Part shown: piece after piece, positions 25,909 to 51,552 of the stretch
Numbering within the stretch: position 1 is the first letter of the stretch
Layout: each line of letters opens with the position of its first letter
IMG/VR virus record: IMGVR_UViG_2795385619_000008
Span: 14,166-78,165 of that record
Length of the DNA stretch: 64,000 nucleotides
Direction: 5' to 3' (one strand)
Source of the DNA: a virus
Lineage: Duplodnaviria; Heunggongvirae; Uroviricota; Caudoviricetes
Program-made: the position numbers and the translations under genes
Notes under the pieces: generated by a model
Told to the model about the DNA's origin: nothing
The model's input: only the letters and a program-made list of their open reading frames with translations
Databases searched by the model: none

Positions 25909-25920
25909 GTTCATGTGGGT
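25909..25920 (+). promoter_or_regulatory. Copy of the conserved motif GTTCATGTGGGT.
   Basis: Exact 12-mer shared with eight other sites. Confidence 0.5.
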
Positions 25921-26170
25921 GGCTATCTCGCGCGCACGCGCTCTAGTACCGTTCCCGACTTACGTAACGACTTCCTCTATGTCAACTTGAGATGCGTTGA
26001 TTGCAAGGGTTATTCATTGCACCGAGAACCTTGCCCAAGTGGGGACGCTGCGGTCTGGAGGTTGATGCCCTTCGGGCAGCCACGCCTACCCGGCGTGGGC
26101 CTCCCTAGCGGGAGGTGCGTGCTCACTGCGTTCGCACTCTCCTTTTAGGGAGGCTACGACACGGTGGAGG

Positions 26171-26182
26171 GTTCATGTGGGT
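26171..26182 (+). promoter_or_regulatory. Copy of the conserved motif GGTTCATGTGGGTAG.
   Basis: Exact match. Confidence 0.5.
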
Positions 26183-26628
26183 AGACCGCCTTGACCTGCT
26201 GAAACACGTAGGAATTCTCAATCGGTAAGTCCAAGAATGGGGGATCAGTAGAATGGGATTCGAGGCTCAGGGAGGCCGAGCAAAGTAGTATCCCTTCCTG
26301 TCGACCTGAGTGCGCAGTCGCGCCGCCGAGGGAGTCGTGACCCTCGGCGCTCAAACCCACACGAACACAGTCGGGGAGTAGCTCCACGCTGGTTGCGTGA
26401 GTGAATCCGCAGCCAAGTTCCTGGAGAGTCGGAACGAAAACATCCTTGAGCTCTTTTTGCTTGATGAGGCAATTCGCGAGCGGCACAAGGAATCTGATAC
26501 TGACGCGGTGTTAACGCTGAAGATCCAGCGCACGCGCATATGCAAAGAGCTCCGAGGAATGGACGTTGAGCCATGGCCTCTTGATGTGGTGCGAGACAAC
26601 AGTTGGCTTGTTGGCCAGCAAACTGCAT

Positions 26629-26640
26629 CATGTGGGTAGT
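26629..26640 (+). promoter_or_regulatory. Variant motif TCATGTGGGTAG, 17 bp upstream of the ATG at 26657.
   Basis: 11 of 12 core match. Confidence 0.4.
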
Positions 26641-26656
26641 TGATAGAATTGCAGCT

Positions 26657-27061
26657 ATGTCTACTGCTAACTGGCTACGTCGCATGGCGCGTAAGAACAA
26701 CGTTGTCGTGCTTGATGATCCAGAGGCAGTATCCGCAACTCTGCAGATCGCAGCCCGTCTACTGGCAAACGGATGGACCCAAGGAATCCGTTTTGAGCGG
26801 GTAGGCGAACGTATGCGCTACGACATCCTTGGGGCTCTTGACGCCGCAGTAGGTAAGTCGGCAGCGAAGGACGATGTGCGCGCCTGGTGGGGAGCCCACC
26901 GGTTGATTTCGCGAGCGATTCCAGCCGGATTCGGTGGGGATGTTTCGGCCTACAACGACGACCCTGCCCGTACGCAGGGGCAGGTCGTGGAACTCATCCG
27001 TGGAGTCGCCCGGAGTCACGGCGCGGTCCTGCAGGCTCAGAAGAAAGTGACACCAGCGTGA
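26657..27061 (+). CDS. Hypothetical protein, the first early-arm gene.
   Basis: ORF starting MSTANW. Confidence 0.45.
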   Translation: MSTANWLRRMARKNNVVVLDDPEAVSATLQIAARLLANGWTQGIRFERVGERMRYDILGALDAAVGKSAAKDDVRAWWGAHRLISRAIPAGFGGDVSAYNDDPARTQGQVVELIRGVARSHGAVLQAQKKVTPA

Positions 27062-27337
27062 GTGATTCCAGCACAGGCGGCACGATTGGCTGCACCCTGC
27101 TCTTCGGCATCCTTGCCCTCCTGAAGATCTGCCCCTGGGATAACCCAGTCCAGGACTGGTCTTGGTGGTGGGTAACCGCTCCCATGTGGGCCGGAACTGC
27201 CTTCCTACTCGTTATGGCCATGCTTGCCGGGATCCTGGTGCTCATCACCAAGGTGCTCGACAAGACCCTCCCCTGATGTTTCAAATCCCATGGTGGCCAT
27301 GGGTATTCATTCTTTTCGTTTTTCTCTACATAGGAGC

Positions 27338-27976
27338 ATGGTGAGCGAAGCCGTCAAGCATTCAACCCTCGCAGAGGCCCTCGTTGCCTTCCAGGCCGAA
27401 GTTGGCTTCGTCGCCAAGGACACTCAGAACCCATTCTTCAAGTCGAAGTATGCAGACCTTCCCGCAGTGATGCGTGAGGCTCAGCCGGTACTGGCCAAGC
27501 ATGGACTCGCCGTGTCGCAGTTGCCGTCCTTCTTCAACGCCGATGGCAAGGTCTACGACACGCTCAAGACTGTTGTCATCCACGAGAGTGGGCAAGAGGT
27601 CGCATCGACGATGGTCCTCCACCCGGTGAAGAACGACCCCCAGGCTCACGGGTCTGCTATCACCTACGCACGTCGCTACGCCTACATGGCCGCGCTTGGT
27701 CTCGTGGCAGATGTGGACGATGACGGTAACGCGGCATCAACTCCAGTCAGGGCCGCTCCGCGTAAGGCCACGCCGAAGAAGGTCACTACCAACCCCGAAG
27801 CCGCTGAGGCACTCGAGCGCGTAAAGGCCGCAGCCAAGGCTGCCGGTGTCGTGTCGAAGGACGTTCAGGCATGGTTCGCCGAGACGTACCCAGATGGAGG
27901 TGCGGTAGTCAGCTCCACTGATGTGGATGCACTGACCGCGACAGCTGCCCACTTCGAGCTGCTTGCGAGCGCCTAA
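27338..27976 (+). CDS. erf: Erf-family single-strand annealing protein.
   Basis: Erf-like N-terminal region (NPFFKSKYADLPAV...TYARRYAYMAALGL). AGGAGC ribosome-binding site. Confidence 0.65.
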   Translation: MVSEAVKHSTLAEALVAFQAEVGFVAKDTQNPFFKSKYADLPAVMREAQPVLAKHGLAVSQLPSFFNADGKVYDTLKTVVIHESGQEVASTMVLHPVKNDPQAHGSAITYARRYAYMAALGLVADVDDDGNAASTPVRAAPRKATPKKVTTNPEAAEALERVKAAAKAAGVVSKDVQAWFAETYPDGGAVVSSTDVDALTATAAHFELLASA

Positions 27977-28017
27977 TTACTGACTGGGCCATCCCTCGGG
28001 ACCGATACCAGCGACCC

Positions 28018-28875
28018 ATGCTGTTCACCCCTGACGGTGGACGTCGGGTCGCCTACTCGCGATGCTCGACGCTGGCTAAGGATCTCGACAAGCCCGGAGA
28101 TGGGTTGTTCGCCTGGCACCAGGCCAATGCCATGTTCGGTCTCGCGCAGAATCCCCAGCTTCTGAACCGCGTCAAGGCGATTATCGCCAAGGGCGGCTCC
28201 TGGGATTCGAGCAAGGGCGAGATCAAAGAGGTCATCTCACAGGCCGAGACTATCGGCGGGGCGATGAACAAGTCCTCCCGGGGAACTTCCATCCACGATT
28301 TCACGGGTGTTCTGGAAGAGGGGAACCTCGACTGGTCACTGGTCGATGAGGATATGAAGCCCATCCTGGATGGGTACCACGAATTCATCGCATCCCTTCC
28401 CGGGATGAACTTCCTGGCGCGTGAGGTCTTCCTGCAGGCGAATGACCGCATCGAGCTGCCGGATGGCCGGATCGCCACGTTGCGCGCTGCCGGATCCGCC
28501 GATCGCATTGTTGAGTGGAATGGCACTCGCTACATGGTCGACATCAAGACTGGTAAGGACGACCAGTACCGGATGGGTGTCTGCGCTCAGCTAGCGCTCT
28601 ACGTACTTGGCAAGCTCTACCAGGATTCCGCTGTCCATCAGGACATTCCGTGGGCCGACTTCTGGCCGAACGCCGATGGCACCGCTGAGTTCGCTGACCA
28701 TGAGTGTGATACCGAGACCGCTCTGATGTTCCATTGCCCGCAGACACCCGACTCGCGTGGCCGCTGGAAGTGGGGGATCTACGAGGTTCCCCTTGCGCGT
28801 GGCCGAGACATTGTTCTTGGTGGCCAGTGGGCCCGCAAGCTTCGTGTCGTTCCCGAGCTGAAGAGGGTTGCCTGA
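28018..28875 (+). CDS. PD-(D/E)XK exonuclease (Cas4/RecB-like), the partner of Erf.
   Basis: D...D-I-K motif (YMVDIKTGK). Confidence 0.55.
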   Translation: MLFTPDGGRRVAYSRCSTLAKDLDKPGDGLFAWHQANAMFGLAQNPQLLNRVKAIIAKGGSWDSSKGEIKEVISQAETIGGAMNKSSRGTSIHDFTGVLEEGNLDWSLVDEDMKPILDGYHEFIASLPGMNFLAREVFLQANDRIELPDGRIATLRAAGSADRIVEWNGTRYMVDIKTGKDDQYRMGVCAQLALYVLGKLYQDSAVHQDIPWADFWPNADGTAEFADHECDTETALMFHCPQTPDSRGRWKWGIYEVPLARGRDIVLGGQWARKLRVVPELKRVA

Positions 28876-29405
28876 TGTCTGCAGAACCATCCGATCCAGC
28901 AGAGCTCAGTCTCCATGGCGAGATCGATGACAAGGTCGCCCGTAAGACCCTGGGCCATCTTCGTGACATCGATATCAATACACCTGGGCGTCCGATCGAT
29001 CTGATCATCAACTCACCTGGTGGGTCTATGGAGCACGGGGACGCCATCTACGACGAGCTCGTGCGGATGTCTATTGCGGGTGGTGGAGGACACCACGTCA
29101 CCACGCGTGTACGCGGTCGTGCTGCATCTGCCGCTTCCTTGATCCTCCAGGCTGGTGATAAGCGCCTTGGTGGACGAATGAGCTACATCTACATGCACGA
29201 GCCGTTGTCTACGTTCCATGACCAGACGATGGCCCAGGTGCGCAATGAGCTCGAGTTCTGCGAGAAGTGGGTGGAGCGATACATCGACGCCCATGACCGC
29301 TGCAATATCTCATACGCCGAATTCCGTGAACGGATTCGGGACAAAGAGTGGTACCTGGCGATGGATGAGGCTGTGGCGCTGGGGATTGTGGACGGTATCG
29401 GATGA
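28875..29405 (+). CDS. clpP: ClpP-like serine protease.
   Basis: INSPGGS, GRAASAAS and MHEP motifs match the ClpP Ser-His region. Confidence 0.65.
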   Translation: MSAEPSDPAELSLHGEIDDKVARKTLGHLRDIDINTPGRPIDLIINSPGGSMEHGDAIYDELVRMSIAGGGGHHVTTRVRGRAASAASLILQAGDKRLGGRMSYIYMHEPLSTFHDQTMAQVRNELEFCEKWVERYIDAHDRCNISYAEFRERIRDKEWYLAMDEAVALGIVDGIG

Positions 29406-29611
29406 GCAGCGTCAGTGAGCAGCTCGAGATCCAGTCTAAGTCGTTGCCAAAGTGCCACCTGGAGTGGAACTTCGCATATCCGTGCGGAGAGCTGGCGCAC
29501 CGCGATGAGGTTGGCGAACTTACAGAGGCGCAGGCGCGAGACTACGCATCCCAGGATCCTGAGCGGAAGCTGATGCAGCGCACTGTCACTGAATGGTATG
29601 AGGCCGAATGA
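29402..29611 (+). CDS. Hypothetical protein.
   Basis: ORF. Confidence 0.35.
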   Translation: MSSVSEQLEIQSKSLPKCHLEWNFAYPCGELAHRDEVGELTEAQARDYASQDPERKLMQRTVTEWYEAE

Positions 29612-29802
29612 TTGCGAATCTCACCGTCAGTCCCGAATCGGCGAACGTCGAAGAGTTTGGCGGCAGGGTTGTGCGCTCCTTCACGTCGTGGCGGATCGAC
29701 TGGCTCGAGTGCAAGAACGATCAGGCCCGTTGCCTGGAGCGTCGCGCACTGCACTACTCAGACATCCCCGGTGTGCTGCAGGAGATCTACCGCAATGAGT
29801 GA
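29608..29802 (+). CDS. Hypothetical protein.
   Basis: ORF. Confidence 0.35.
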   Translation: MIANLTVSPESANVEEFGGRVVRSFTSWRIDWLECKNDQARCLERRALHYSDIPGVLQEIYRNE

Positions 29803-32090: not shown

Positions 32091-32444
32091 GTGACGGAGA
32101 GGCTCTGCCGGATTGAGATCCCTCGGCGCTCAGGTGGGCTGTGTGAGCGCTGCGGCATCGGAGGTGGGTTGTCCATGCACCACCGCAAGAAGAGGTCTCA
32201 GGGAGGCCCCTGGAGCCTCGACAACATCGTCCACGTCTGCGGCCACGGAACTGTCGGGTGCCACGGTTGGATCGAACACAACCCCAACGCAGCACACTCT
32301 GAGGGATATCACGTAAGGCCTTGGGAAGAACCAAGTTCCATCCCGATCTACCAGCACCACCTGGGAAAGTTCACCCACATGAACCTACTAGGGGGCGAAT
32401 ATCATAGAGACGTTGATCTACGAGACCCATGGTCCGACAACTGA
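32091..32444 (+). CDS. HNH endonuclease.
   Basis: CERCG...HHRKKRSQGG...DNIVHVCGHGTVGCHGWIEH. Confidence 0.6.
   Translation: MTERLCRIEIPRRSGGLCERCGIGGGLSMHHRKKRSQGGPWSLDNIVHVCGHGTVGCHGWIEHNPNAAHSEGYHVRPWEEPSSIPIYQHHLGKFTHMNLLGGEYHRDVDLRDPWSDN
32373..32384 (-). repeat. Motif copy ACCCACATGAAC inside the HNH coding sequence.
   Basis: Exact 12-mer. Confidence 0.4.
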
Positions 32445-33415: not shown

Positions 33416-34659
33416 TTGGTGCCCTTCTCCTGAACCCTGATGTGTTCTCCAAACTGGAGGGCCTGAGGGCAGACTACTTCTACCACCCCACAAACGAGCT
33501 CCTCTTCACATGCATCCAGGGGATGTATGCGGAGGCCGTGCCAATCGACGCCATGACGGTGTTTGACCGACTGCGCCGCAATAAGGAACTCCGTCAGTCT
33601 GGCGGTGCCCCCTACCTGCAAACCTGCATGGAGCACTGCAATGTTCCTGGGAACGTGGGGTACTACGCGCGGATCGTCACCGAGCAGTGGAAGATCCGCA
33701 CCGTCAACAGCCTCGGTCAGAGGTTTCAGCAGCTTCACGACGACCCGGGAGAGATCCCTGAGGCGCTTGAGGCCGCGCGCTCATTCCTGGACCAGCTCGA
33801 TGACATGCAGGAGGTCTATTCTCTCGGCTTCCGAGACCTCTACGACCAGTGGTCGACGGCGCAGGAAGACGATCGGCCCTTCCTACCCACTCCGTGGCGC
33901 AACGTCAATGAGCAGCTTGGCGGGGGATATCAGAGCCAGCGCCTGTACGTGACCGGCGCACGCCCTGGATGTGGCAAGACGATCTTTGGAACGCAGGTGT
34001 CGTGGCACATTGCCAAGCAGGGCTTTGAGACGCTCGTGTTCTCACTGGAGCTCTCGAAGGACGACCTGATGGGTCGACTCGCTGCGTGCGGCACTGAAAC
34101 CGCATACACCCCAATCTTCCGGCGCAAGATGGACCCATCTCAGCAGGAGAAGATCAGCCGCTGGGCAGCGGACAACGCGGAGATCCGGTTCACGATTGAT
34201 GATGAGCCAGACCTCACTATTGAGGAGATCGCCCAGCGCTGCCGCGTACACAAGCAGCGCAATGGCCTGGACTTCGTGTTCATTGACTACTTGCAGCTTG
34301 TCAAGTCAGCCAAGCGGTTTGACTCGCGTGTGCTTGAGGTCGACTACATCGCAACCATGGCGCGTAGTATCGCTCGCCGCCTGGATTGCGCGGTTCTTGT
34401 TGCAGCACAGCTCAATCGGAGCCTTGAACAGACGAACGGAAAGCCGCGCATGCCGAACAAGTCAGACTTCCGTGAATCTGGGGGTATTGAACAGACCGCT
34501 GACGTCGCGGTGATCCTCGCGCGGCCACCTGCCTCTAACGGTGATGGTGAGGACCAGAGCGTCCCACTGATGAATGCGTGCTTCGTGAAGAACCGACAGG
34601 GCCCTGAGGATGTCGTGATCCTCGCCGAGCGTTTCGACCAGATGCGGTTTGCGGCATGA
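33364..34659 (+). CDS. dnaB: DnaB-like replicative helicase.
   Basis: Walker A GARPGCGKT, VFIDYLQLV. Confidence 0.8.
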   Translation: MSGDREPAHDLRAEQGVIGALLLNPDVFSKLEGLRADYFYHPTNELLFTCIQGMYAEAVPIDAMTVFDRLRRNKELRQSGGAPYLQTCMEHCNVPGNVGYYARIVTEQWKIRTVNSLGQRFQQLHDDPGEIPEALEAARSFLDQLDDMQEVYSLGFRDLYDQWSTAQEDDRPFLPTPWRNVNEQLGGGYQSQRLYVTGARPGCGKTIFGTQVSWHIAKQGFETLVFSLELSKDDLMGRLAACGTETAYTPIFRRKMDPSQQEKISRWAADNAEIRFTIDDEPDLTIEEIAQRCRVHKQRNGLDFVFIDYLQLVKSAKRFDSRVLEVDYIATMARSIARRLDCAVLVAAQLNRSLEQTNGKPRMPNKSDFRESGGIEQTADVAVILARPPASNGDGEDQSVPLMNACFVKNRQGPEDVVILAERFDQMRFAA

Positions 34660-34979
34660 AGCTCTGGAACTCAAGCCAGGAGTGGTACCAGTACGTACAG
34701 TGCGGTGGGGATATCCGATTCATTATGGATCCCAACGAACTTGGACCGAAAGACACTGCTGAGGTCAAAGCAATTTGCGCGCAGTGCCCGGTGCGGCCCG
34801 AGTGCCTGAAGGCCAATTGCGTTGACCGACAGGAGGCTACGGTCTGGGTGGCTGGGGAATGGATCCCTGAGATGCCTGGCAAGACGAAGAACGCGAAGGC
34901 TCGCCGCGCATCGTTCTATTCAGGCATGGCCAGCCGCATCCCCGCTGAAGAGGCCGTCCGGCCCGATTTCATCCGGTAG
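34656..34979 (+). CDS. whiB: WhiB-family Fe-S transcription factor.
   Basis: CAQCPVRPEC plus an upstream Cys. Confidence 0.7.
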   Translation: MKLWNSSQEWYQYVQCGGDIRFIMDPNELGPKDTAEVKAICAQCPVRPECLKANCVDRQEATVWVAGEWIPEMPGKTKNAKARRASFYSGMASRIPAEEAVRPDFIR

Positions 34980-35108
34980 ACGGCAAACCTCACCCAGTAG
35001 TTGTTTGGTAATCAACAATCCCCAGATTTTTACCCCATGTGACCGGGGTTACAGTCTCCTGACAGGGAGCTGGGAGGAAGCTAATGGGGAGGTGGGGGAT
35101 CGTTTGCA

Positions 35109-35120
35109 GTTCATGTGGGT
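35109..35120 (+). promoter_or_regulatory. Motif copy GTTCATGTGGGT.
   Basis: Exact. Confidence 0.5.
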
Positions 35121-35125
35121 GCCGC

Positions 35126-35602
35126 ATGTCATACCCTCTCGGTATGGTGATTCCAACGACGGACAGCCAACCGGGGAGGTTGACGGTCTGTCGCGTGAGA
35201 AGGTTCGGACGTAAAGGTAGCGGGTCGTTGAGTAGGAACCGAAGTTCGGCGAAAGCCGCAGGGGCGAAGTTCAATCGCCTTATTGTTGATGGGCTGCGAG
35301 AGGCATTGCAGGATCCCAACATTCAAGTTGCACCAAGCTGGGGGAGTGTCGACAAGGGTGACGTTGTCAACTTCCGAATCGGTGGCCAAGACATCGTTAT
35401 CGAAACTAAGGACGTAACTACATTAAGCCTTCCCGAAGGGGTCGGGGAGGCTAAAGTGGAGGCCAAGAACGCGGGCGCTCTTGCCGGGTTCTTCGTTCAC
35501 AAGCGCAAGGGCACAACCGATCCCATGAAGCAGTGGGTTAGCTGTACTCTCGCCGAACTTGTCGCACTTGCAACAAAAATTCCGGTACACGACCGGGATT
35601 GA
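35126..35602 (+). CDS. PD-(D/E)XK fold nuclease, Holliday-junction-resolvase-like. The start is uncertain.
   Basis: GDVVNF...DIVIETKD motif. Confidence 0.45.
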   Translation: MSYPLGMVIPTTDSQPGRLTVCRVRRFGRKGSGSLSRNRSSAKAAGAKFNRLIVDGLREALQDPNIQVAPSWGSVDKGDVVNFRIGGQDIVIETKDVTTLSLPEGVGEAKVEAKNAGALAGFFVHKRKGTTDPMKQWVSCTLAELVALATKIPVHDRD

Positions 35603-36247
35603 TTGAAGGGATACAACCGAATGACCGCTATCATCGACCACCCATCACCGGCTAGCGACCTGGATCTTGATTGGCGCAGCAAAGCTGTGTGCGATCCATC
35701 TGATACTGAGTCCCACTTCCAGACCGTGGAAGACCTCGTAGAGGATGGAGTTCCACAGGAGCTGGCTACAGAAATGGTGGCCTATGCCGAACAACGCGCA
35801 AAGGCCACATGCTCGCGCTGCCCCGTGAGGGATATGTGCCGTACCTGGGCCCTGGAGAACGGGGAGGAGTTCGGCATCTGGGGTGGAACCACCCCCGCTG
35901 AGCGCGCTGCGTTGCGCCCCGAGTGGCCCGCGATCAAGAAGATCACCTATCTGCCGGTAGAGCCACTACCGGGCGAGGCTCTCCATGAGCACAACGGGGT
36001 GGATACCCGCTACCGCAATCGCCTGGTGAAGGCGCGGTTGGCTCACGAGATGCTGTCCTCTCAGCCTGAGTTCGCTGTGTTCCACCGTCGCGTGGGTCAC
36101 CAGGGCCGTCAGGCATGCTTGGACGTGGTGGATGCAATCATTGCCAATCCCTCCACTCCTACTACGGATCTGGCTGCACGCATTGGGAAGTCATCGAACT
36201 TCTTTAGCCAGTTGTTCAGTTTGGTGTGCCGCGAGCTGGGTATCTAG
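35603..36247 (+). CDS. WhiB-like domain protein with a C-terminal extension.
   Basis: CSRCPVRDMC..GIWGG core. Confidence 0.55.
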   Translation: MKGYNRMTAIIDHPSPASDLDLDWRSKAVCDPSDTESHFQTVEDLVEDGVPQELATEMVAYAEQRAKATCSRCPVRDMCRTWALENGEEFGIWGGTTPAERAALRPEWPAIKKITYLPVEPLPGEALHEHNGVDTRYRNRLVKARLAHEMLSSQPEFAVFHRRVGHQGRQACLDVVDAIIANPSTPTTDLAARIGKSSNFFSQLFSLVCRELGI

Positions 36248-36377
36248 CAAACCCGGTCTCGCTCACCATCGCTATATAATATAAGTAGCTGCTGTAGAGC
36301 TACGCTCCAGTAGTCGCCCCGGTCGATGTATCTAGACGCCCTCTCATGCGCCGCCGACCGGGGCTCTACTTTTTCTC

Positions 36378-36389
36378 ACCCACATGAAC
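36378..36389 (-). promoter_or_regulatory. Motif copy ACCCACATGAAC whose ATG is the start of the gene at 36384.
   Basis: Exact. Confidence 0.5.
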
Positions 36390-36632
36390 CCCGACCACGT
36401 CGATACCATTCTATTTATGGATGGAAATGACTGGGGCGCAACAGCATCACTGAATGGCAGCATTCAGGCGCTCTCGGAAACCATTGCGACACAGAAGCTT
36501 CAGGTCGCAGAGCTGAACAAGCAGGTTGGCGACGCGTACTTCGCACTTGGTGAGGTCTACGGCATCGCCGTCCGATCTGGATACGCATCGATTGAACGTG
36601 CGATCGAGCGGTGGGCAGGACTCAACCGATGA
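36384..36632 (+). CDS. Hypothetical protein beginning MNP.
   Basis: ORF. Confidence 0.45.
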   Translation: MNPDHVDTILFMDGNDWGATASLNGSIQALSETIATQKLQVAELNKQVGDAYFALGEVYGIAVRSGYASIERAIERWAGLNR

Positions 36633-37081
36633 GCCGACCACCCGATGTCACGTTGAATCGACAGGATGGAACTCCATACCTGTTGCGGTGGCACGTGATC
36701 CCGCGCAACAAGCGATTCAACATCTACCTTCACAAGTTCCTTGGTTCGGATGATGACCGCGCACTTCACGACCATCCCTGGTGGTTCGTCTCGATCCTGC
36801 TGGACGGCCAGTATTGGGAGCACCGCGAGGACGGGTCTCGGAATCTGCGCAAGGCCCCGAGTGTTGCCTTCCGGCGAGCCACCACGGCTCATCGCGTGGA
36901 GTTGGAAACAGGGGCTCTGGTCGACCCGTGGGATCCAAACGAGGTGTGGGCGCGTTACGAGATCCCCGCTACGACCCTGATCATCACCGGACCGAAGGTG
37001 CGGTCCTGGGGATTTCACTGCCCCAATGGTTGGAAGCACTGGCGAAAGTTCATTAATCACAACGGATGTGGAGAGAAATGA
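36628..37081 (+). CDS. Hypothetical protein.
   Basis: ATGA overlap. Confidence 0.45.
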
Positions 37082-37248
37082 GTTTCCGAACCTTCCTGTT
37101 CATCACCGCGCTTGTGGCCTCGGTGGCGATTGCAACGAGCCTTGGGCCCCCGGGAGTATTTGTGGCGTGGGCGGTTGAGTTCTTGGTTGGCATCGGCGTT
37201 GCTTGGTCCATCCGGAGGGATGTGGATGATGCGAGGCGCGGACGATGA
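37078..37248 (+). CDS. Small membrane protein.
   Basis: Hydrophobic, 56 aa. Confidence 0.35.
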   Translation: MSFRTFLFITALVASVAIATSLGPPGVFVAWAVEFLVGIGVAWSIRRDVDDARRGR

Positions 37249-37445
37249 CCGAGGACCAGGTAGACGTGAGCGACAAGAACCCGATGGTTCCCGCTGACTC
37301 GGCAGGGGCTCGCGAGCGTTGGTCCCGTATCCCGGGCCGCGCGCTGAAGCGCAGCCTTGCCATGGGGCGTGGCGACTACAACCCGAAGCGGTCGCGAGTT
37401 CGCCGTCGCATTCACCGTATCCGTCGACAGAAGGCGTGGCTTTGA
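37245..37445 (+). CDS. Small basic protein.
   Basis: ORF. Confidence 0.3.
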   Translation: MTEDQVDVSDKNPMVPADSAGARERWSRIPGRALKRSLAMGRGDYNPKRSRVRRRIHRIRRQKAWL

Positions 37446-38239
37446 CCACGCTGATCATCGGTTCGACGGCAGCAAGGCACTGGTTTCCTGATTGGCGTGA
37501 GCCCAAGGACGTGGATGCGTTCACCGACAAAGACCAGATCGACGTCTCCATGATCACCGACTGCGGTCTGAAGGGTGACTTCTTCTGGGACGAGCGCCTC
37601 CGCGACCTCATCCATGCAGGCGGGGTCGCTACCCCGGACGAGCTGTACACGATCAAGCATTCGCACGCCTACTGGGAGCTGAAGAACAGCTCCTGGGGTA
37701 AGCACATGACTGACCTGCTGGATCTCAAGCGCAGGGGAGCCAAGCTCATCCCCGCATGGCATGACGTGCTCTACAAGGTTTGGGAAGACCTCCACGGCAA
37801 GAAGCAGGTGGATCTCACCCAGGAGTCGGACGAGTTCTTCACTGACGCGGTGAAGCGCATCTACGACCATGACTCCATCCACCACTCAGTGGCCTACACG
37901 CCCGGGAAGCCCATCTACGACGAGTGCCTGAAGGATGGCAAGTCGGTCCAGATGGACATGGCGAAGGTCTGGGCTATGCCACACGAGCGGATCGTGCAGA
38001 TGTTCCGCGAGGAGATCTGCGTGACCGCGCTGGAGCGGTTGGTGATCCCCAACGACTACAAGTACTCACCCGGGGCGGCATACCAGTGGGCCCTGCGCCG
38101 CACCGTCACTTCCCTGACGAAGGGGAAGAGCGCCCAGTTCATCGTGAGCCACTTCGACGAGTTCCGCGCGCCGGACCTCAACTACGTGCAGTGGCACAAG
38201 GACAACAGCCATTTTCTGAAGCGATTGGAAACCGTATGA
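37436..38239 (+). CDS. Nucleotidyltransferase-like protein.
   Basis: GSTAA...DVDAF motif. Confidence 0.45.
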   Translation: MALTTLIIGSTAARHWFPDWREPKDVDAFTDKDQIDVSMITDCGLKGDFFWDERLRDLIHAGGVATPDELYTIKHSHAYWELKNSSWGKHMTDLLDLKRRGAKLIPAWHDVLYKVWEDLHGKKQVDLTQESDEFFTDAVKRIYDHDSIHHSVAYTPGKPIYDECLKDGKSVQMDMAKVWAMPHERIVQMFREEICVTALERLVIPNDYKYSPGAAYQWALRRTVTSLTKGKSAQFIVSHFDEFRAPDLNYVQWHKDNSHFLKRLETV

Positions 38240-38571
38240 GTTACAACGCAGCTGATATCGACAAGATTGTTGACGGATTCAAGATCGACAAGCCTTGGGT
38301 GTTCTTCTATAACTGCCTCAAAGTTGCGCCTTGGACGCAGCTTGATGGCATCGGCAAGGCCGAGTTCGTCCAGGAGCAAGAGGAGGAGCGCGACTACTGG
38401 AACGAAGGAAGCATCTACTTCGTCTTCAAGGTCACCGACTCCGCTGGGGTGGAGCGCTACTTCCGCAAGTCGGGCGAGTACTCGTCGTATGAGAAGGCCG
38501 AGTACTACGGAAAGCTTGAAGAGGTTAAGGCCGCGAAAGTCCAGCGTCTCGTTTGGGAGAGCGTCCGGTGA
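38236..38571 (+). CDS. Paralog family member 1.
   Basis: Shared FVFKVT..G.ERYFR..GEY motif. Confidence 0.5.
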   Translation: MSYNAADIDKIVDGFKIDKPWVFFYNCLKVAPWTQLDGIGKAEFVQEQEEERDYWNEGSIYFVFKVTDSAGVERYFRKSGEYSSYEKAEYYGKLEEVKAAKVQRLVWESVR

Positions 38572-38903
38572 GCGCCGAACTGATCGACGCCGTGATCCCT
38601 GCAACGTATCCCAGGCCACGTAATTGGTACGGGAGCTGGAACCCGTGGGGCGAATTCTACGAAGCCTTGTCAGAGGGGCCCGTGACGTTGGGTCAACTTG
38701 GCAGCGCCCAGCTTCTATCGCACCACACTCCGCAATACGAGTGGAGCGAGGATAACGACGTGGCGTACTTCGTCTTCTCATTGGGGGAGAGAAGCTTCCG
38801 GCGCGGTGGGTTAGTCGATTCCTACGATGGAGTCGGGTGGCATGGGCCAACTGAAGAGGTTGAGCCAGTGCAGGTTACACGCACTGAGTGGAGGGCGATA
38901 TGA
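38568..38903 (+). CDS. Paralog family member 2, divergent.
   Basis: GTGA overlap. FVFSLGERSFRR. Confidence 0.45.
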   Translation: MSAELIDAVIPATYPRPRNWYGSWNPWGEFYEALSEGPVTLGQLGSAQLLSHHTPQYEWSEDNDVAYFVFSLGERSFRRGGLVDSYDGVGWHGPTEEVEPVQVTRTEWRAI

Positions 38904-39235
38904 GCTACACCATCAAGGATCTCAACAAGGCGATTGAGGACGAGGAGAACTCGTGGGAGGGTTCTTGGTTCGAGTTCGAAGATCGCATTGAGTACGACAG
39001 CGCTGGTGTGGTCGTTCCCAGTATCGGTCGAGCGACCTTTGTCGATCAGTATGGCGGCGAGGGTAAGGGCGAAGACCTCTGGATGATCTTCAAGGTCACG
39101 TCCCTGGACGGCACCGAGCGCTACTTCCGCCGCACTGGCTATTGGGCGTCCTTCAGTGGTGGCGAATACGACGGCCCCACAAGAGAAGTGAAGGCAACAC
39201 AGAAGCTCGTGACCGTTTATGAGGAGATCAAGTGA
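38900..39235 (+). CDS. Paralog family member 3.
   Basis: MSYTIKDL.. IFKVTSLDGTERYFRRTGYWASFSGGEYDGPT. Confidence 0.5.
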   Translation: MSYTIKDLNKAIEDEENSWEGSWFEFEDRIEYDSAGVVVPSIGRATFVDQYGGEGKGEDLWMIFKVTSLDGTERYFRRTGYWASFSGGEYDGPTREVKATQKLVTVYEEIK

Positions 39236-39636
39236 GTTACACCATCGGAGAGCTCGACGAAGCGATCGAGAACGAAGCGGACGAGTGGGGCGGATCCTGG
39301 CATGAGTTCCGCGAGGCAGTCGACCAAACGCATGAATACCGCCGTGATGCGGATGGCAACTTCGTGCGTGACGCGGAAGGTCTGATCATCCGAGACCTGC
39401 TTGAGGTTCCCGGTGCGGAGATCCCTGGCATTGGACAGGCGGTCCTGGTGGATGACTTCGGCGGTGAAGGCCAGGGTGATCAGTACTGGTTCGTCTTCAA
39501 GGTCACCAACGCCGATGGTGAGCGCTTCTTCCGTCGCAATGGCTACTATGCCTCGTTCCATGGCGGGGACTACGACGGCCCGACTGATGAGGTTGTGGCG
39601 CGTGAGAAGACGATCAAGGTCTGGGTGAAGAAGTGA
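39232..39636 (+). CDS. Paralog family member 4.
   Basis: MSYTIGEL.. FVFKVTNADGERFFRRNGYYASFHGGDYDGPT. Confidence 0.5.
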   Translation: MSYTIGELDEAIENEADEWGGSWHEFREAVDQTHEYRRDADGNFVRDAEGLIIRDLLEVPGAEIPGIGQAVLVDDFGGEGQGDQYWFVFKVTNADGERFFRRNGYYASFHGGDYDGPTDEVVAREKTIKVWVKK

Positions 39637-40844: not shown

Positions 40845-40855
40845 CTACCCACATG

Positions 40856-40867
40856 AACCCAGCATGC
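40856..40867 (-). promoter_or_regulatory. Motif copy ACCCACATGAAC whose ATG is the start of the gene at 40862.
   Basis: Exact. Confidence 0.5.
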
Positions 40868-41122
40868 CGAAATACACTGGGACACATGGAAACTTTTAAA
40901 ACACCAGGGACACAGCTCCCATTCCATTACTCCAATGGACACGTCACCGTCGCACTGGAGGATGGACGTTACCTCCTGATCGTCGCAGGCCCCGACACGC
41001 TCGTAGCGTCTCCAAAGAGCGCCTGGGTGCAGACCGTGGAAGAGCGCAACGAAATGGCTGACAGGCTGCTCGAGGCCCTTCTCACTGGTACGACCCTCGA
41101 CTGCTTCGCGGCCTCCGAGTGA
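40862..41122 (+). CDS. Hypothetical protein beginning MNP.
   Basis: ORF. Confidence 0.4.
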   Translation, partial: ACRNTLGHMETFKTPGTQLPFHYSNGHVTVALEDGRYLLIVAGPDTLVASPKSAWVQTVEERNEMADRLLEALLTGTTLDCFAASE

Positions 41123-46093: not shown

Positions 46094-46160
46094 GCACTGA
46101 CTTCTCGGCGTTTGGGCCCCGGTTCCTCAGTGGATCGGGGCCCATTTTTATTCGCCAGAG

Positions 46161-46172
46161 GTTCATGTGGGT
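46161..46172 (+). promoter_or_regulatory. Motif copy GGTTCATGTGGGTAG at the entrance to the RNA island.
   Basis: Exact. Confidence 0.5.
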
Positions 46173-46227
46173 AGGTCGTAAACTGAGTTCAGCAAGAGGG
46201 GCTACCAGGGCCTGAAAATCTGGAAAT

Positions 46228-47428: not shown

Positions 47429-47507
47429 CAATGAGACTGGTGTGGAACGAACTGAAGGCTTGCGGCAAGCAGAAACGTTCCCCCGCCCGCAAGGCCAGTC
47501 TCAGCCT

Positions 47508-47580
47508 TGATGATTGGTGTAACCGGCAGCACACGTGGCTCTGAACCACGTAGGTCTTGGTTCGAATCCAGGGTCATCAG
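47508..47580 (+). tRNA. tRNA-Gln (CTG).
   Basis: Loop CTCTGAA. Confidence 0.55.
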
Positions 47581-47662
47581 CTTTTGGGTCAACCGGTAGG
47601 TACCTGCCATGAGTTGACTGTCCGGTGGCTCGCATGCCCTCCGTCACAGAAGCATGCCGCAT

Positions 47663-47747
47663 GGAAGGCTCCGCTGAATGGTCGGCAACCGGCGTCGAAT
47701 ACCGGGGCAGGCAGTGCGTCCTGGGGGTTCGAGTCCTCAGCTTTCCG
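47663..47747 (+). tRNA. tRNA-Ser (CGA).
   Basis: Long variable arm. Loop GTCGAAT. Confidence 0.45.
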
Positions 47748-47829
47748 CTCCTAAAGTCTTCCACCTGCCTGAATGGTGGCTAATCAGGTGTGCTCCAAGA
47801 TCGCGTGGACACGGCAACAGGTGGACCAA

Positions 47830-47913
47830 GGAGAGCGCAACTAGTTAGGTGACTAGGCCCGGTTGCTAACCGGATCGCTGCTCTGCAGTAGGTTTCGAAT
47901 ACCTGCCTCTCCA
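47830..47913 (+). tRNA. tRNA-Ser (GCT).
   Basis: Loop TTGCTAA, long variable arm. Confidence 0.55.
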
Positions 47914-48363
47914 CGCACCCACACGAACTCTGTTGTGGGAGATATAGTTAAGACATTCGGGGCATGGCCCATAAGCCACCGCAAGGTGGTGAAAGGTGGG
48001 GTGACAACCCACCACCCGCAAGGGCAATCCATGCAATCCAATCCTTGAGCAGTCAGTGATGGCTGCCAGGTCGTGAGTCTGCCCGTGACCGACGCCGAAT
48101 GTGGTGAGGTCAGCAGCCCGTATCGTGCGGGTGCTCCGTGGGAGTAATGCAGGGGACAGGACAAGCGGCCTGTGGAACGGAAGGAACTGAGTCCGAGCCT
48201 CGCAAGCAAGGGCGTGTTCCATGATCGATCTCGCGTCGGGCGACGGCTCGCAATGCGGTTGAGAGAGAGTGTAATTAGCCCCGCCAGGCGAAAGCACGAG
48301 AGGCGTGAAGCATTCTGTGCCACAAAAGGGTTCGGAACTTCATGGGGAAGCACGTCTTTGGTC

Positions 48364-48436
48364 AAACATCTAGCTCATTTGGTAGAGCATCTGTCGCATA
48401 AACAGTTGGTAGCCGGTTCAATTCCGGCGATGTATA
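48364..48436 (+). tRNA. tRNA-Met (CAT).
   Basis: TAGCTCATTTGGTAGAGC. Loop CGCATAA. Confidence 0.55.
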
Positions 48437-48729
48437 CAAGCAAAAGTCCTTCCCCTGCCGAGGAGCAAAAGCGCCTTAATCCCAGACCTTCGGGAATCTG
48501 GGCCGCACAATAGTCCCGCAAGGTGAGTGCGGTTTGTAGGCAAGTACTGCAGCAGTGAGACGGCCATCTCATCGCGAAGGGAAAGCCGCAGAGTAGCTTT
48601 CGGCATGACGAGTGGTTCACGGTAACGGACCAGGCGTGAGAACTAGGTCAGGGATGGCCTGGAGAAGCAGCGAATCAATAATGCTGCGAAAGGTTCTCGA
48701 TAGCGGGTGTACTCTCAGCCTCTAACAAT

Positions 48730-48803
48730 CGACTCTTAGCTCAGTTAGGTAAGAGCGACCGGTTGAAGCCCGGTGCGCCCCCGTTCGATTCGGGGAGAGT
48801 CGG
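48730..48803 (+). tRNA. tRNA-Phe (GAA).
   Basis: Perfect acceptor CGACTCT/AGAGTCG. Loop TTGAAGC. Confidence 0.65.
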
Positions 48804-48925
48804 CGTGTAAGGGAAACCAGGTTCCACAGCTACTGGTGAAAAGCTGGGCACTCCACGTAAAAGGTCGCGTTGACTCGCGCGGATACGGTAGGCGATGAAC
48901 TGTCCTACCGGAATGAGTCACTCAT

Positions 48926-49000
48926 AGCGGGTTAGAGAAGTTCGGCCATCTCGCGAGCCTCATAAGCTTGAGACCACCGGTTCAAATCCGGTACCCGCCA
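48926..49000 (+). tRNA. tRNA with anticodon CAT (Met, or Ile-lysidine). The 1:72 pair is mismatched.
   Basis: Loop CTCATAA. D-stem GAGA/TCTC. Confidence 0.55.
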
Positions 49001-49064
49001 CAGGGTCCGCTCGCCAGCAAGTCTGGTCCTGAAACCCACGGAGACGGTTAAAGAGTCGGGCAAT

Positions 49065-49139
49065 CCCGTTGTTGGGCAATGGAGCGCCCACCGCCCTACG
49101 AAGGCGCAACGCATGCAGGTTCGAATCCTGTCAACGGGT
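49065..49139 (+). tRNA. tRNA-Arg (ACG).
   Basis: Acceptor CCCGTTG/CAACGGG. Loop CTACGAA. Confidence 0.6.
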
Positions 49140-49203
49140 CTGAGCGCTGTCGGTACAAAGCCCGAACGAACAGAGATGCCATGCTGCTCTGGCCAGCGCC
49201 ATA

Positions 49204-49274
49204 CCTTGTGTAGCTCAATGGCAGAGCTCCTCGCTGTGACCGAGGTTATCGCGGTTCAACTCCGCGCATAGGGA
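49204..49274 (+). tRNA. tRNA-His (GTG).
   Basis: Loop CTGTGAC. Confidence 0.55.
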
Positions 49275-49297
49275 CGTACAGACACTGAAAGGCCAAG

Positions 49298-49462
49298 ATG
49301 ACTGACAAGCTGCGCACGGGTATCGCCCATATCGACATCGTCAAGGCGGTGAACGATCTGATCGATCGCATGGATGCTCTTGAGGGCTTCCATTACGCGG
49401 TGGATGAGAAGCCGGTGGCCAAGAAGGCTCCCGCAAAGAAGGTAGCCCCACCTGCAGAGTAG
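49298..49462 (+). CDS. Small basic protein (54 aa) embedded in the tRNA array.
   Basis: ATG preceded by GAAAGG. MTDKLRTGIAHIDIVKAV...KKAPAKKVAPPAE. Confidence 0.35.
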   Translation: MTDKLRTGIAHIDIVKAVNDLIDRMDALEGFHYAVDEKPVAKKAPAKKVAPPAE

Positions 49463-49471
49463 GTGGCATAA

Positions 49472-49543
49472 GGCGAAGTGAGTGAGTGGCTAGCTGGCAG
49501 GCTGCAACCCTGACCCACACCGGTTCGAATCCGGTCTTCGTCT
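49472..49543 (+). tRNA. tRNA-Cys (GCA).
   Basis: Loop CTGCAAC. Confidence 0.55.
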
Positions 49544-49613
49544 CCGACGCGCTCGATGGGGCTGGTGAGCCATCGTAAAGCCGACGCGTTAGACCATGAA
49601 ATATCGGCACCAT

Positions 49614-49688
49614 GCTCCGGTAGCCCAATTTGGCAGAGGCGACAGGCTTAGACCCTGGAGGTTGTGGGTTCGAATCCCTCTCGGAGTA
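49614..49688 (+). tRNA. tRNA with anticodon TAG (a Leu anticodon) but a short class-I variable arm.
   Basis: Loop CTTAGAC. Variable AGGTT. Discriminator A. Confidence 0.45.
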
Positions 49689-49757
49689 CTCGACGGGTGG
49701 CCCCCGTGAAAGGGCCTGCAGTACTTCGGTAAAGCTGCGTCATCAAACACCGAGCCT

Positions 49758-49832
49758 GGTCGGCTAGGCAAACCTGGCAAAGCCGCCGAGCTCAAACCTC
49801 GGTGTCTGCGAGTTCGATCCTCGCGCCGACTA
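49758..49832 (+). tRNA. tRNA with anticodon CAA (a Leu anticodon) but a short class-I variable arm.
   Basis: Loop CTCAAAC. Variable TGTCT. Discriminator A. Confidence 0.45.
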
Positions 49833-49833
49833 C

Positions 49834-50046
49834 GTGAACAAGTATCGCCTGACAGCTGCGGGGGTCTCATATCTTGCCTGGGGCAAGGAGCTCACCCCGG
49901 AAGGTGCTAGGGCCCTGGTTGAAGCAGAGTGCGGCGTTAGGGCCAGTGACTGTCAGCGATACCACCCAGAGCGCTCACGTGGGCGCGATGGATACAGGAA
50001 GGCGTACCCGCATGTGTGGGCAGCGTTTCCCGCGATCACAAGTTAA
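49834..50046 (+). CDS. Possible small protein gene within the tRNA array.
   Basis: GTG-start ORF of 70 aa between tRNAs. Confidence 0.25.
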   Translation: MNKYRLTAAGVSYLAWGKELTPEGARALVEAECGVRASDCQRYHPERSRGRDGYRKAYPHVWAAFPAITS

Positions 50047-50047
50047 T

Positions 50048-50118
50048 GGGCGTTGGTGAAACGGAATCACCCTAGACTTTTAATCTATGAGTTGAGGGTT
50101 CAAATCCCTTGCGCCCTA
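50048..50118 (+). tRNA. tRNA-Lys (TTT), imperfect acceptor.
   Basis: Loop CTTTTAA. Confidence 0.45.
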
Positions 50119-50119
50119 C

Positions 50120-50191
50120 GGGAGTATAGTTAAGCGGTTATAACTCTTGGCTCTTACCCATGAATCCCAGGTTCGATCCCTGGTGCTCCCA
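50120..50191 (+). tRNA. tRNA-Lys (CTT).
   Basis: Loop CTCTTAC. D-stem GTTA/TAAC. Confidence 0.55.
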
Positions 50192-50192
50192 C

Positions 50193-50264
50193 TAGCTCGT
50201 CGTCCAATGGTTAGGACACCGCTCTGATAAGGCGGAAACCAGTGTTCAACTCACTGCGGGCTTA
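50193..50264 (+). tRNA. tRNA-Ile (GAT).
   Basis: Loop CTGATAA. Confidence 0.5.
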
Positions 50265-50271
50265 CCAACTT

Positions 50272-50342
50272 ACGACTGTAACTCGGACAGACCAACGGCC
50301 TCCTAAGCCGCGTGGAAGCAGGTTCAACTCCTGTCGGTCGTG
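50272..50342 (+). tRNA. tRNA-Arg (CCT).
   Basis: Loop CTCCTAA. Confidence 0.5.
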
Positions 50343-50390
50343 CGCCAGTATGCATTTCGTACCCCTCGGGCCTACGTTCTGCATACTCAT

Positions 50391-50464
50391 GCGAGTGTGA
50401 TGTTTAACGGTTAGCATCTCTGTCTTCCAAACAGATCGTGCCAGTTCGAATCTGGTCACTCGTT
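50391..50464 (+). tRNA. tRNA-Gly (TCC).
   Basis: Loop CTTCCAA. Confidence 0.55.
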
Positions 50465-50590
50465 CGACGTCCTGGGATGGACGACCCTACGGTGGAGACT
50501 TCGGTTGTCGCCGGAAGCTTGTGCGCGGATAGAGCATCCGCCAGGGACCTCTCGCTGCAGCATTGGCACCCTCAACCAAAAGCTCGATAT

Positions 50591-50658
50591 GCCTGGTTAG
50601 TCTGGGACGAAAGCTGGCTTACATCCAGCCAAGCGGTGTTCGATTCACCGACTGGGTA
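50591..50658 (+). tRNA. tRNA-Val (TAC), short D-arm.
   Basis: Loop CTTACAT. Confidence 0.45.
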
Positions 50659-50663
50659 CGCAG

Positions 50664-50737
50664 GCCTCATTAGCTCATCCGGCTAGAGCACTTCCTTAGT
50701 AACGAAGAGGCGCGGGGTTCGAGACCTCGATGAGGCC
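50664..50737 (+). tRNA. tRNA-Thr (AGT).
   Basis: Perfect acceptor GCCTCAT/ATGAGGC. Loop TTAGTAA. Confidence 0.55.
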
Positions 50738-50976
50738 CGACGTTCAGTCTTTCTGCATGTTCAGCTTTGTTGAACAGCAGGGGGATTGAACACTTGGGGG
50801 CGCATGTTCCAAGGTGGCGACCGATCCTTGCAAGATTGGTGTGGTCGCGTTCAATTCGCACCGTCTCCACGGGAGTTTTGGCCAAGCAGCTCCAGGGTTT
50901 GATTCCCAGAAAGTTGGCTCAGGTTGTTCGTACCTGCCCCAGTGGCCTCGAAAACCGCTGGGGGTAAACGTCCTAA

Positions 50977-51049
50977 GCACGTGTAGCTCAATCGGGAGAG
51001 CGCCACCCTGTCAAGGTGGAGGCAGCGGGATCAAAACCCGCCACGGGCG
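50977..51049 (+). tRNA. tRNA-Asp (GTC) with a non-canonical T-loop ATCAAAA.
   Basis: Loop CTGTCAA. Confidence 0.55.
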
Positions 51050-51050
51050 C

Positions 51051-51389
51051 GTGAGTAGAGAACTAGTGCTGTCAGTGACCCTGAAGGATTGTCGTGTAGA
51101 CACATTCCGATCAGGTGGCAAGGGTGGCCAGAACCAGAACAAGCGCGAGACGGGTGTGCGGATTACGCACGAGCCATCTGGTGCGATTGGTGAGTCGCGC
51201 GAGGAGCGTAGTCAGCTTCAGAACAAGCAGGCTGCGTTTCGTCGAATGGCGGGCTCACCGAAGTTCCAGCTCTGGGTGAAGCGTCAAGTCGGTCGTGATG
51301 ACCTGCAGAAGGCCCAGGTGGAGCGCGATATGTGGCCGGTGAACCTCAAGACCGAGGTTCGCGAGTCCGGCAAATGGGTTGAGCAGTAA
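51051..51389 (+). CDS. GGQ-motif peptidyl-tRNA hydrolase domain protein (stand-alone class-I release-factor catalytic domain, ArfB/PrfH-like).
   Basis: DCRVDTFRSGGKGGQNQNKRETGVRITHEPSGAIGESREERSQLQNKQ matches release-factor domain 3. GTG start 2 nt after tRNA-Asp. Confidence 0.65.
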   Translation: MSRELVLSVTLKDCRVDTFRSGGKGGQNQNKRETGVRITHEPSGAIGESREERSQLQNKQAAFRRMAGSPKFQLWVKRQVGRDDLQKAQVERDMWPVNLKTEVRESGKWVEQ

Positions 51390-51430
51390 CCCGTTCGATG
51401 TTCGGTATTGACCGCACAGCGAACACTCAA

Positions 51431-51501
51431 GGTCCATTGGTGTAGTGAGAGCACACCACCCTCTCAAGGTGTTGGTGCGGGTTTGATTCCCGCATGGACT
51501 A
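51431..51501 (+). tRNA. tRNA-Glu (CTC).
   Basis: Loop CTCTCAA. T-loop TTTGATT. Confidence 0.55.
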
Positions 51502-51505
51502 CTCG

Positions 51506-51548
51506 GAAGGCCCTCAGCGCAAGCTGGGGGCCTTTTTCGTACCCACAT
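51506..51548 (+). terminator. Rho-independent terminator closing the RNA island.
   Basis: Hairpin CCCTCAGC-GCAA-GCTGGGGG followed by CCTTTTTCGT. Confidence 0.55.
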
Positions 51549-51552
51549 GAAC
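51541..51552 (-). promoter_or_regulatory. Motif copy ACCCACATGAAC. Its ATG opens an 11-codon leader (MNPKALNTIGT) whose TGA overlaps the ATG at 51579.
   Basis: Exact 12-mer. Confidence 0.45.

Follow-up and report, generated by a model that had tools for sequence, protein, structure and literature searches.

The subject of this analysis is a 12-bp sequence, hereafter the box, that recurs in a 64-kb window of a tailed phage genome (IMG/VR virus record IMGVR_UViG_2795385619_000008, positions 14,166 to 78,165; coordinates below count from the first base of the window). The window represents a Mycobacterium abscessus prophage of the Cluster M-like MabI type, with 81-83% identity to the M. abscessus prophages prophiGD86-1, prophiGD54-2, and prophiT49-2. 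MabI prophages have been reported to be organized like the Cluster M mycobacteriophages (PMC8092301), and the taxonomy of these relatives is Vilmaviridae/Mclasvirinae. Structural genes occupy 1-23 kb of the window and leftward integrase-side genes 56.7-64 kb, while all copies of the box lie within 25.9-51.6 kb, the non-structural early region; the window also encodes 20 tRNAs and one tmRNA. When gene assignments are transferred from prophiGD54-2, the box sites fall among genes 57-133 of that prophage, its predicted early lytic region. One extra exact box, beyond the range covered by the window, is found in prophiGD54-2 at the divergent junction beside the terminase genes, facing leftward genes 19 to 9.

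Eight exact copies of the 12-mer GTTCATGTGGGT (reverse complement ACCCACATGAAC) are present in the window, on the plus strand at 25909, 26171, 35109, and 46161 and on the minus strand at 32373, 36378, 40847, and 51541. Shuffled windows are expected to hold 0.02 copies, in agreement with the claim of the original prediction that chance would give far fewer than one, and none of 100 shuffles attained eight. That prediction had counted nine exact copies; the ninth site does exist, as the variant CATCATGTGGGT, and its position is 26626-26637 rather than 26629, while a copy placed at 40856 in fact lies at 40847-40858. Two further variant boxes, one-mismatch copies of the form ACCCACACGAAC at 26355 and 47917, were absent from the earlier list and are kept in relatives. 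No other k-mer in the window is repeated nearly as often, and the box is the only one of its kind there. Its information profile has sharp edges (y-ACCCACATGAAC-cc), beyond which the flanks carry approximately zero information. Neither the structural genes nor the integrase-side leftward genes of the window contain a box. A one-mismatch copy, ACCCGCATGAAC, is present within a tail gene at 12468-12479 (+) with no -10 element nearby, and is probably there by chance. Two simple readings of the box were rejected: the ATG or GTG within it does not serve as a conserved start codon, because the frames disagree among sites and the resulting open reading frames (ORFs) are short, and it is not a palindrome or dimer site, as symmetry is confined to the central CATG (4 of 12 positions).

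What ties these copies together is their distance to a -10 element. Read toward the downstream genes, seven sites (class A) have the layout ACCCACATGAAC-N14/15-TAnnnT-N6/7-start, so that the box spans roughly -38 to -27 and takes the position of a -35 hexamer; the spacer is N15 rather than N14 in one of them, and another has AACACT at N14 instead of TAnnnT. At three other sites the box is inverted (class B and one further inverted site), lying 6 nucleotides (nt) from the -10 at two of them and 11 nt at the third. The background rate of TAnnnT in the DNA of the window is 0.0025 per position, and its presence at one and the same offset in five of the eight exact sites has a P of about 5e-12. Six sites have an ATG 6-8 nt past the -10, with no Shine-Dalgarno sequence, at the start of a gene (25882, 26657, 35144, 36417, 40886, and 51579), and these predicted starts agree with the gene starts of homologs; four of them (25882, 36417, 40886, and 51579, with the ATG 6-7 nt past the -10) head class A leaderless units. 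A sigma-70 consensus scan returned no -35/-10 promoter at any box site and no -35 hexamer 16-18 nt upstream of the -10, and promoters of this type are rarer in the region than in shuffles. We also considered a -35 hexamer hidden within the box and rejected it, since the scan was empty and CCACAT, CACATG, and ACATGA are all unlike TTGACA. As judged from the DNA itself, the 12-mer is the upstream element of about 11 predicted promoters that head nearly all of the non-structural transcription units. The proposal of a phage-specific promoter or protein-binding site is supported by a TAnnnT -10 at a fixed distance (only the variant at 26355 is without a clear -10), by the frequently leaderless ATG, and by conservation in relatives.

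Two of these predicted promoters, both class A, face leftward on the minus strand. At 25909-25920 the box is followed by the -10 AACACT (25889-25894) and by the leaderless ATG 25882, which begins ORF 25442-25882 at the head of the leftward operon. For comparison we used a footprint set of nine MabI-type genomes (the window, prophiGD54-2, and seven IMG/VR contigs), in which the box, a CAA[CG]ACT -10, and the ATG of this site are constant and the spacer changes. The second leftward box, at 26171-26182, has its -10 TAGCCT at 26151-26156 and a predicted start at about 26143, and the promoter drives a conserved non-coding leader that runs from 26144 to 25921. Facing the other way, the variant box ACCCACACGAAC at 26355-26366 (+) lies 30 nt ahead of GTG 26397 and is of uncertain status; it is exact in prophiGD54-2. 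The variant CATCATGTGGGT at 26626-26637 (+) is of class B, with the inverted box followed after N6 by an extended -10, TGaTAGAAT (hexamer 26644-26649), and after N7 by ATG 26657 of a DUF6197 gene, the opener of the main rightward early operon. In relatives the -10 of this site reads TAGAAT or TAAAAT, with the ATG constant.

The remaining sites also face rightward, on the plus strand. The class A box at 32373-32384 is located in the 3' end of an ORF that was said to encode an HNH protein, an assignment with which Pfam concurs; it is followed after N15 by the -10 TATCAT (32400-32405), with a predicted start at about 32412, and lies upstream of the genes for SSB (32466), RepA, a helicase, and a short WhiB protein. 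At 35109-35120 an inverted box is followed after N11 by TACCCT (35132-35137) and after N6 by ATG 35144, the start of a Holliday-junction resolvase ORF, with the gene for a long WhiB protein coming next. The class A box at 36378-36389 has TACCAT at N14 (36404-36409), then N7 and the leaderless ATG 36417; relatives have TACCAT or TACGAT here, and the N7 stretch is wholly variable. The class A box at 40847-40858 likewise has N14, the -10 TACACT at 40873-40878, and N7 ahead of the leaderless ATG 40886, and this -10 varies among TACACT, TAAACT, and TAGACT in relatives. At 46161-46172 a class B inverted box, with TAAACT after N6 (46179-46184) and a predicted start at about 46191, comes directly after a strong terminator (46113-46152) and ahead of tRNA-Trp (46228), the tmRNA, and the tRNA array. 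Inside this island there is a variant class A box, ACCCACACGAAC, at 47917-47928, with TATAGT at N14 (47943-47948) and a predicted start at about 47955. The last box, of class A at 51541-51552, abuts a strong intrinsic terminator (51505-51540) and is followed by N14, TACCAT (51567-51572), N6, and ATG 51579. The position of the tRNA/tmRNA island agrees with the earlier placement of sites at its entrance (46161) and exit (51541). Downstream of this last box, small ORFs occupy 51579-51988, between the promoter and DprA, and the RtcB-like RNA ligase gene of relatives is reduced in the window to 33 N-terminal codons (52002-52100).

This arrangement bears on the suggestion of a stoperator role of the Cluster A kind, in which bound repressor would block elongating polymerase inside operons. 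The box does share with L5-type sites its asymmetry, its length of 12-14 bp, and its multiple copies (PMC9934374). However, the boxes lie outside operons, are tied to a -10, and often follow a terminator, and their orientation relative to transcription is mixed, with seven pointing one way and three the other. A stoperator role is therefore highly improbable, and this part of the original prediction finds no support.

Across the nine MabI-type genomes the boxes occupy syntenic places and are invariant or carry a single change, so that the conservation to be expected of a functional site is indeed found in related prophages. The T, A, and T of the -10 element are constant and the inner bases differ (TACCAT/TACGAT; TACACT/TAAACT/TAGACT; TAGAAT/TAAAAT; TAAACT/TAGACT), while spacers and discriminator vary freely and the ATG is fixed. 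A constant box and constant -10 positions set among variable spacers and inner bases constitute the footprint of a functional promoter. Searched across IMG/VR, the pattern box-N14-TAnnnT is present in multiple copies only in eight MabI-type contigs, and the other 45 matches are singletons.

More distant relatives have a different box in the same geometry. The Cluster M phages Bongo (M1), Rey, and Aziz are without the MabI box, near-copies of ACCCACATGAAC (two mismatches or fewer) being at chance level in Bongo. Instead, all three have TCCTGTAATCAC, of which there are no copies in the window, at analogous places (in the divergent region, after the long WhiB gene, before DnaQ, and before tRNA-Trp) in the layout box-N14-TAnnnT-N7-ATG. 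An inverted form, CTGACCTGCGATTACAGGA-N6-(-10), stands before the gene-52 operon, RtcB, and others, and in these class B sites a -35-like CTGACC lies just upstream, with the box filling the spacer. Two uncultured relatives have still other boxes, (tt)CCCGTCTTACC in L017 and TCCCGGTAGAC in L018, at 14-15 nt from TAnnnT, and all that the four boxes have in common is CC at positions 2-3. The class of a given locus can also differ, as the tRNA-Trp site is of class B in the window and of class A in Bongo, and the RtcB site is of class A in the window and of class B in Bongo. That a 12-bp box is swapped wholesale between lineages while the geometry is kept speaks for a reader encoded by the phage rather than for host sigma-A, and we consider it very probable that the box is a promoter element read by a protein of the phage. 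The alternative of a -35 element recognized by an alternative sigma factor of the host has in its favor a loose resemblance of ATGAAC-CC to the -35 motifs of the extracytoplasmic function type. It is scarcely credible: the box is an invariant 12 bp that is wholly different between related lineages in identical geometry, the downstream element is a TAnnnT of the sigma-A type, and the inverted use of the box in class B is incompatible with a -35 role.

To gain insight into what might read the box, we searched 20 small proteins (from the leftward operon, the first rightward genes, and the integrase side) against Pfam. The two WhiB-like proteins were the only transcription factors found; no protein resembling a helix-turn-helix (HTH) factor or a repressor was detected among the 20 candidates, and many small ORFs are unclassified. 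Both WhiB-like proteins had been put forward as binders in the original prediction. This gains support for the long one, in which a DNA-reading module is predicted, and not for the short one (34656-34979), which is a bare WhiB domain without any such module. The long WhiB gene (35621-36247, +) encodes 208 amino acids, with a WhiB domain (Pfam Whib, E 3e-19) followed by about 110 further residues. A single-sequence AlphaFold2 model of the protein was too poor to use (predicted local distance difference test, pLDDT, of 46). A model built on a 15-sequence alignment has a confident WhiB domain, a disordered linker at residues 102-117, and a C-terminal part of pLDDT 90-95 that consists of a long helix, a beta-hairpin, and a three-helix HTH. 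In Foldseek searches the N-terminal domain matched WhiB1, WhiB3, WhiB, and WhiB7 in complexes with sigma-A region 4, and the C-terminal part is a structural match to the long helix and sigma-4-like HTH of WhiA. The sequence matches of this part in Pfam and the Protein Data Bank (PDB) were weak or spurious (HTH_24 at E 0.07 and an F420 ligase) and were set aside, and a contig search with the long WhiB protein gave as its sole match an irrelevant AT-rich metagenome-assembled genome. Three metagenomic WhiB proteins (P0026, P0036, and P0124) bear Pfam HTH_23, HTH_28, or HTH_29 domains; fusions of WhiB to an HTH therefore seem to have arisen more than once.

The putative recognition helix of the long WhiB protein (residues ~189-203) changes along with the box. 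It reads SSNFFSQLFSL in MabI, RGEY[IV]NSMLRE in M1, M2, and M3 phages, SRPWFNDLLRS in L017, and KRAWFSDVLRF in L018. Phages of the M1, M2, and M3 groups have one box in common, and the M1 helix shares 80% identity with that of M2/M3, compared with 54-56% over the WhiB domain. Where the boxes of two groups differ, identity is 20-33% in the helix and 42-49% in the WhiB domain. From the sequences, this covariation suggests a fit of the long WhiB protein as the reader, and we tentatively name it as such, as a prediction in which we have less than even confidence.

The explanation that we favor overall, with a probability of roughly one half, is that the box acts in early promoters in place of the -35 element and that the long WhiB protein is its most likely reader. 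The WhiB domain would dock on sigma-A region 4, as in the WhiB proteins of solved structure, and the flexibly linked C-terminal part, with its WhiA-like long helix and sigma-4-like HTH, would read the box. RNA polymerase would thereby be recruited to class A promoters that have no -35 element of their own. The inverted boxes in the spacer might be reached by way of the flexible linker, or they might serve for shut-off or autoregulation, as may be the case at the extended -10 promoter at 26626 and at 35109, the WhiB operon's own promoter. With such an arrangement, an immunity repressor would need to silence only the promoter or promoters from which the long WhiB protein is made. A possible, and on our estimate somewhat doubtful, generalization is that temperate actinophages (Cluster M, MabI, and uncultured relatives) use a single-chain fusion of WhiB to the WhiA C-terminal domain as a portable promoter-specificity module, which replaces -35 recognition with a lineage-specific 12-bp box and so defines a whole, mostly leaderless early regulon. 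Box and helix would then co-evolve, giving rise to mutually orthogonal programs of phage transcription.

Several points weigh against this explanation. No binding or transcription data, including RNA-seq, were found for MabI or Cluster M phages in the accessible literature, and the likeness of the C-terminal part to WhiA is structural only, as none was found at the sequence level in Pfam or the PDB. The GACAC site of WhiA lies upstream of the -35, whereas the box overlaps the -35 or sits in the spacer, which is the place of sigma region 4 or polymerase. Since the long WhiB gene is itself behind the box promoter at 35109, an activator of this kind would need basal expression. The covariation of helix and box is confounded by phylogeny, because any lineage-specific protein would differ between lineages. 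Phage Kumao (L016) has a long WhiB protein and no comparable class A/B promoter box, which counts mildly against the idea. Finally, the exchange of class A and class B at orthologous loci, seen between the window and Bongo, suggests the same regulatory outcome from both, which fits simple occlusion by a repressor.

The last point leads to a rival explanation, in which the box is the operator of an immunity repressor, with one copy per early promoter. One repressor would then shut down every terminator-bounded unit of the lysogen and make it immune to superinfection. The window is a temperate prophage with many separate early promoters, and at each of them the box overlaps the core promoter, spanning -38 to -27, -35 to -24, or -30 to -19 relative to the start. 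Class B sites in Bongo, Rey, and Aziz, with CTGACC at the -35 position and the box in the spacer, have the classic operator layout, and the extended -10 at 26626 (TGnTAGAAT) should suffice with sigma-A alone. The M1, M2, and M3 phages, which share one box, are reportedly homoimmune. A repressor of the MabI prophages has been reported as not located (PMC8092301). On the other hand, four lineages preserve N14 and N6 to the nucleotide, a precision that steric occlusion does not need, and no cluster of sites lies beside any candidate repressor gene. The class A promoters are without any -35, which suggests a need for help rather than for blocking. Nor was a repressor-like or HTH protein recognized by Pfam among the 20 small proteins searched here, many small ORFs being unclassified. 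An operator role, which the original prediction had listed, retains the support of the overlap with the core promoter and remains a live rival, albeit one that we judge to be rather unlikely.

It is also conceivable that the box, still in place of the -35, is read by a different phage protein, such as a small activator or a sigma-like or sigma-appropriating factor, with the long WhiB protein uninvolved. Most of the early genes have no assigned function, and the geometry resembles that of the middle promoters of phage T4. However, no such factor was detected, and only the long WhiB protein combines predicted polymerase-docking and DNA-reading domains here. We judge this alternative to be improbable.

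Beside the boxes lie two conserved non-coding units, neither of which has a match in Rfam. At 36275-36377 (+), between the long WhiB gene and the box at 36378, there is a small-RNA-like unit that appears to be independent of the box. It has a perfect -10, TATAAT, within TATATAATATAA, and in the ~90 nt that follow are a hairpin at the 5' end and a terminator, CCCCGGUCG...CGACCGGGG, with a U-tract; its core, CUCCAGUAG.CGCCCCGG..AUCUAGACGCC.UCUC..GCGCCG..GACCGGGGCU, is likewise present at this location in L017, L018, L020, and L021. The other unit is the leader of about 220 nt at 25921-26144 (-) that runs leftward from the 26171 promoter. It contains several hairpins with compensatory changes and no conserved coding frame, and its first ~26 nt, AAAAGGAGAGUGCGAACGCAGUGAGC, are invariant in MabI genomes and have one difference in Bongo, Rey, and Aziz, genomes that are otherwise without DNA similarity.

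Some lineages with the long WhiB protein contribute little to the comparison of boxes. Kumao proved uninformative as an extra box lineage, having a different repeat, CAGTAATAACCCACTGCCGG, with seven copies at 33937-39250, three of them in tandem 34 bp apart in the manner of an operator array; the repeat has ACCCAC in common with the MabI box. The short contigs L019-L021 have one candidate site each, and the lineages of P0018 and P0020 share CCACTAGTT at the expected place, which is too thin to count. In L019 (1997-2014), L020 (~720-740 and 1912-1950), and L021 (~1070-1090), two tandem copies of TGGCACAAC precede the TAnnnT of the small-RNA unit by 22 nt, and in these three further long-WhiB lineages this tandem may be a different upstream activator or operator site.

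The box provides an immediate map of the transcription units in MabI prophages of M. abscessus, a group that carries at least 20 tRNAs, a tmRNA, and toxin cassettes. If the long WhiB protein does read it, the pair would be a compact natural device for retargeting sigma in mycobacteria, and there would be at least four orthogonal box/reader pairs (MabI, Cluster M, L017, and L018) that could be used as orthogonal mycobacterial expression switches. Activation of the WhiA/WhiB type would then extend from development to the control of phage genes. If the box is instead an immunity operator, it could serve as bait for the repressor and would predict immunity groups among prophages of relevance to therapeutic phages.

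Among known systems, the closest are the repeats of Cluster M phages (Bongo, PegLeg, and Rey), which have reportedly been described as conserved repeats that suggest novel regulatory systems. These phages have the same virus family (Vilmaviridae/Mclasvirinae) and genome plan as the window. Their 12-mers share syntenic places with ours (the divergent early region, after the long WhiB gene, and before DnaQ, tRNA-Trp, and RtcB) as well as both geometries, box-N14-TAnnnT-N7-ATG and inverted box-N6-(-10), as checked on the genomes of Bongo, Rey, and Aziz. The sequences themselves are unrelated (TCCTGTAATCAC versus ACCCACATGAAC) save for CC at positions 2-3, and the class at a locus can differ. The MabI box is thus a sequence-distinct member of the promoter-associated repeats of Cluster M. 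We found no description of the MabI box or of a fusion of WhiB to the WhiA C-terminal domain in the accessible literature, where a search with the box sequence itself returned only unrelated primer matches. The stoperators of Cluster A are further removed. Sites of the L5 type are asymmetric, 13-14 bp long, and multi-copy, and one overlaps the -35 of the early promoter Pleft (PMC9934374), but stoperators are found inside operons, all in one orientation, and affect elongation, whereas the MabI boxes belong to promoters.

For the mechanism, the nearest likeness is to WhiA/WhiB activation in Streptomyces, in which WhiB binds sigma-A region 4 and the long helix and sigma-4-like C-terminal domain of WhiA read an asymmetric GACAC; this site occurs in either orientation and at variable spacing owing to a flexible linker, and the model promoter sepX is leaderless (Lilic et al. 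2023, PMC10243135). In structure, one half of the phage protein corresponds to WhiB and the other to the long helix and C-terminal domain of WhiA, but both modules are in one chain of 208 amino acids without the homing-endonuclease-like N-terminal domain of WhiA, and the phage box is 12 bp long, lineage-specific, without GACAC, and overlaps or lies downstream of the -35, while GACAC lies upstream. WhiB7 promoters likewise involve a WhiB-like protein on sigma-A region 4 with a C-terminal DNA-reading appendage of its own, and WhiB7 complexes are among the fold matches; there, an AT-hook reads a minor-groove AT tract next to the -35, while the appendage of the phage protein is an HTH whose putative target is a specific 12-mer. 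A further parallel is offered by the middle promoters of T4, which have a MotA box at about -30 and a -10 element and at which a phage factor docks on sigma region 4 (AsiA appropriation). There, too, the -35 gives way to a box peculiar to the phage, set at a constant distance from a -10 of the sigma-70 type, but the proteins are unrelated and two in number, and the T4 box is used in a single orientation. The MabI system would work in a manner analogous to WhiA/WhiB activation or to MotA/AsiA appropriation.

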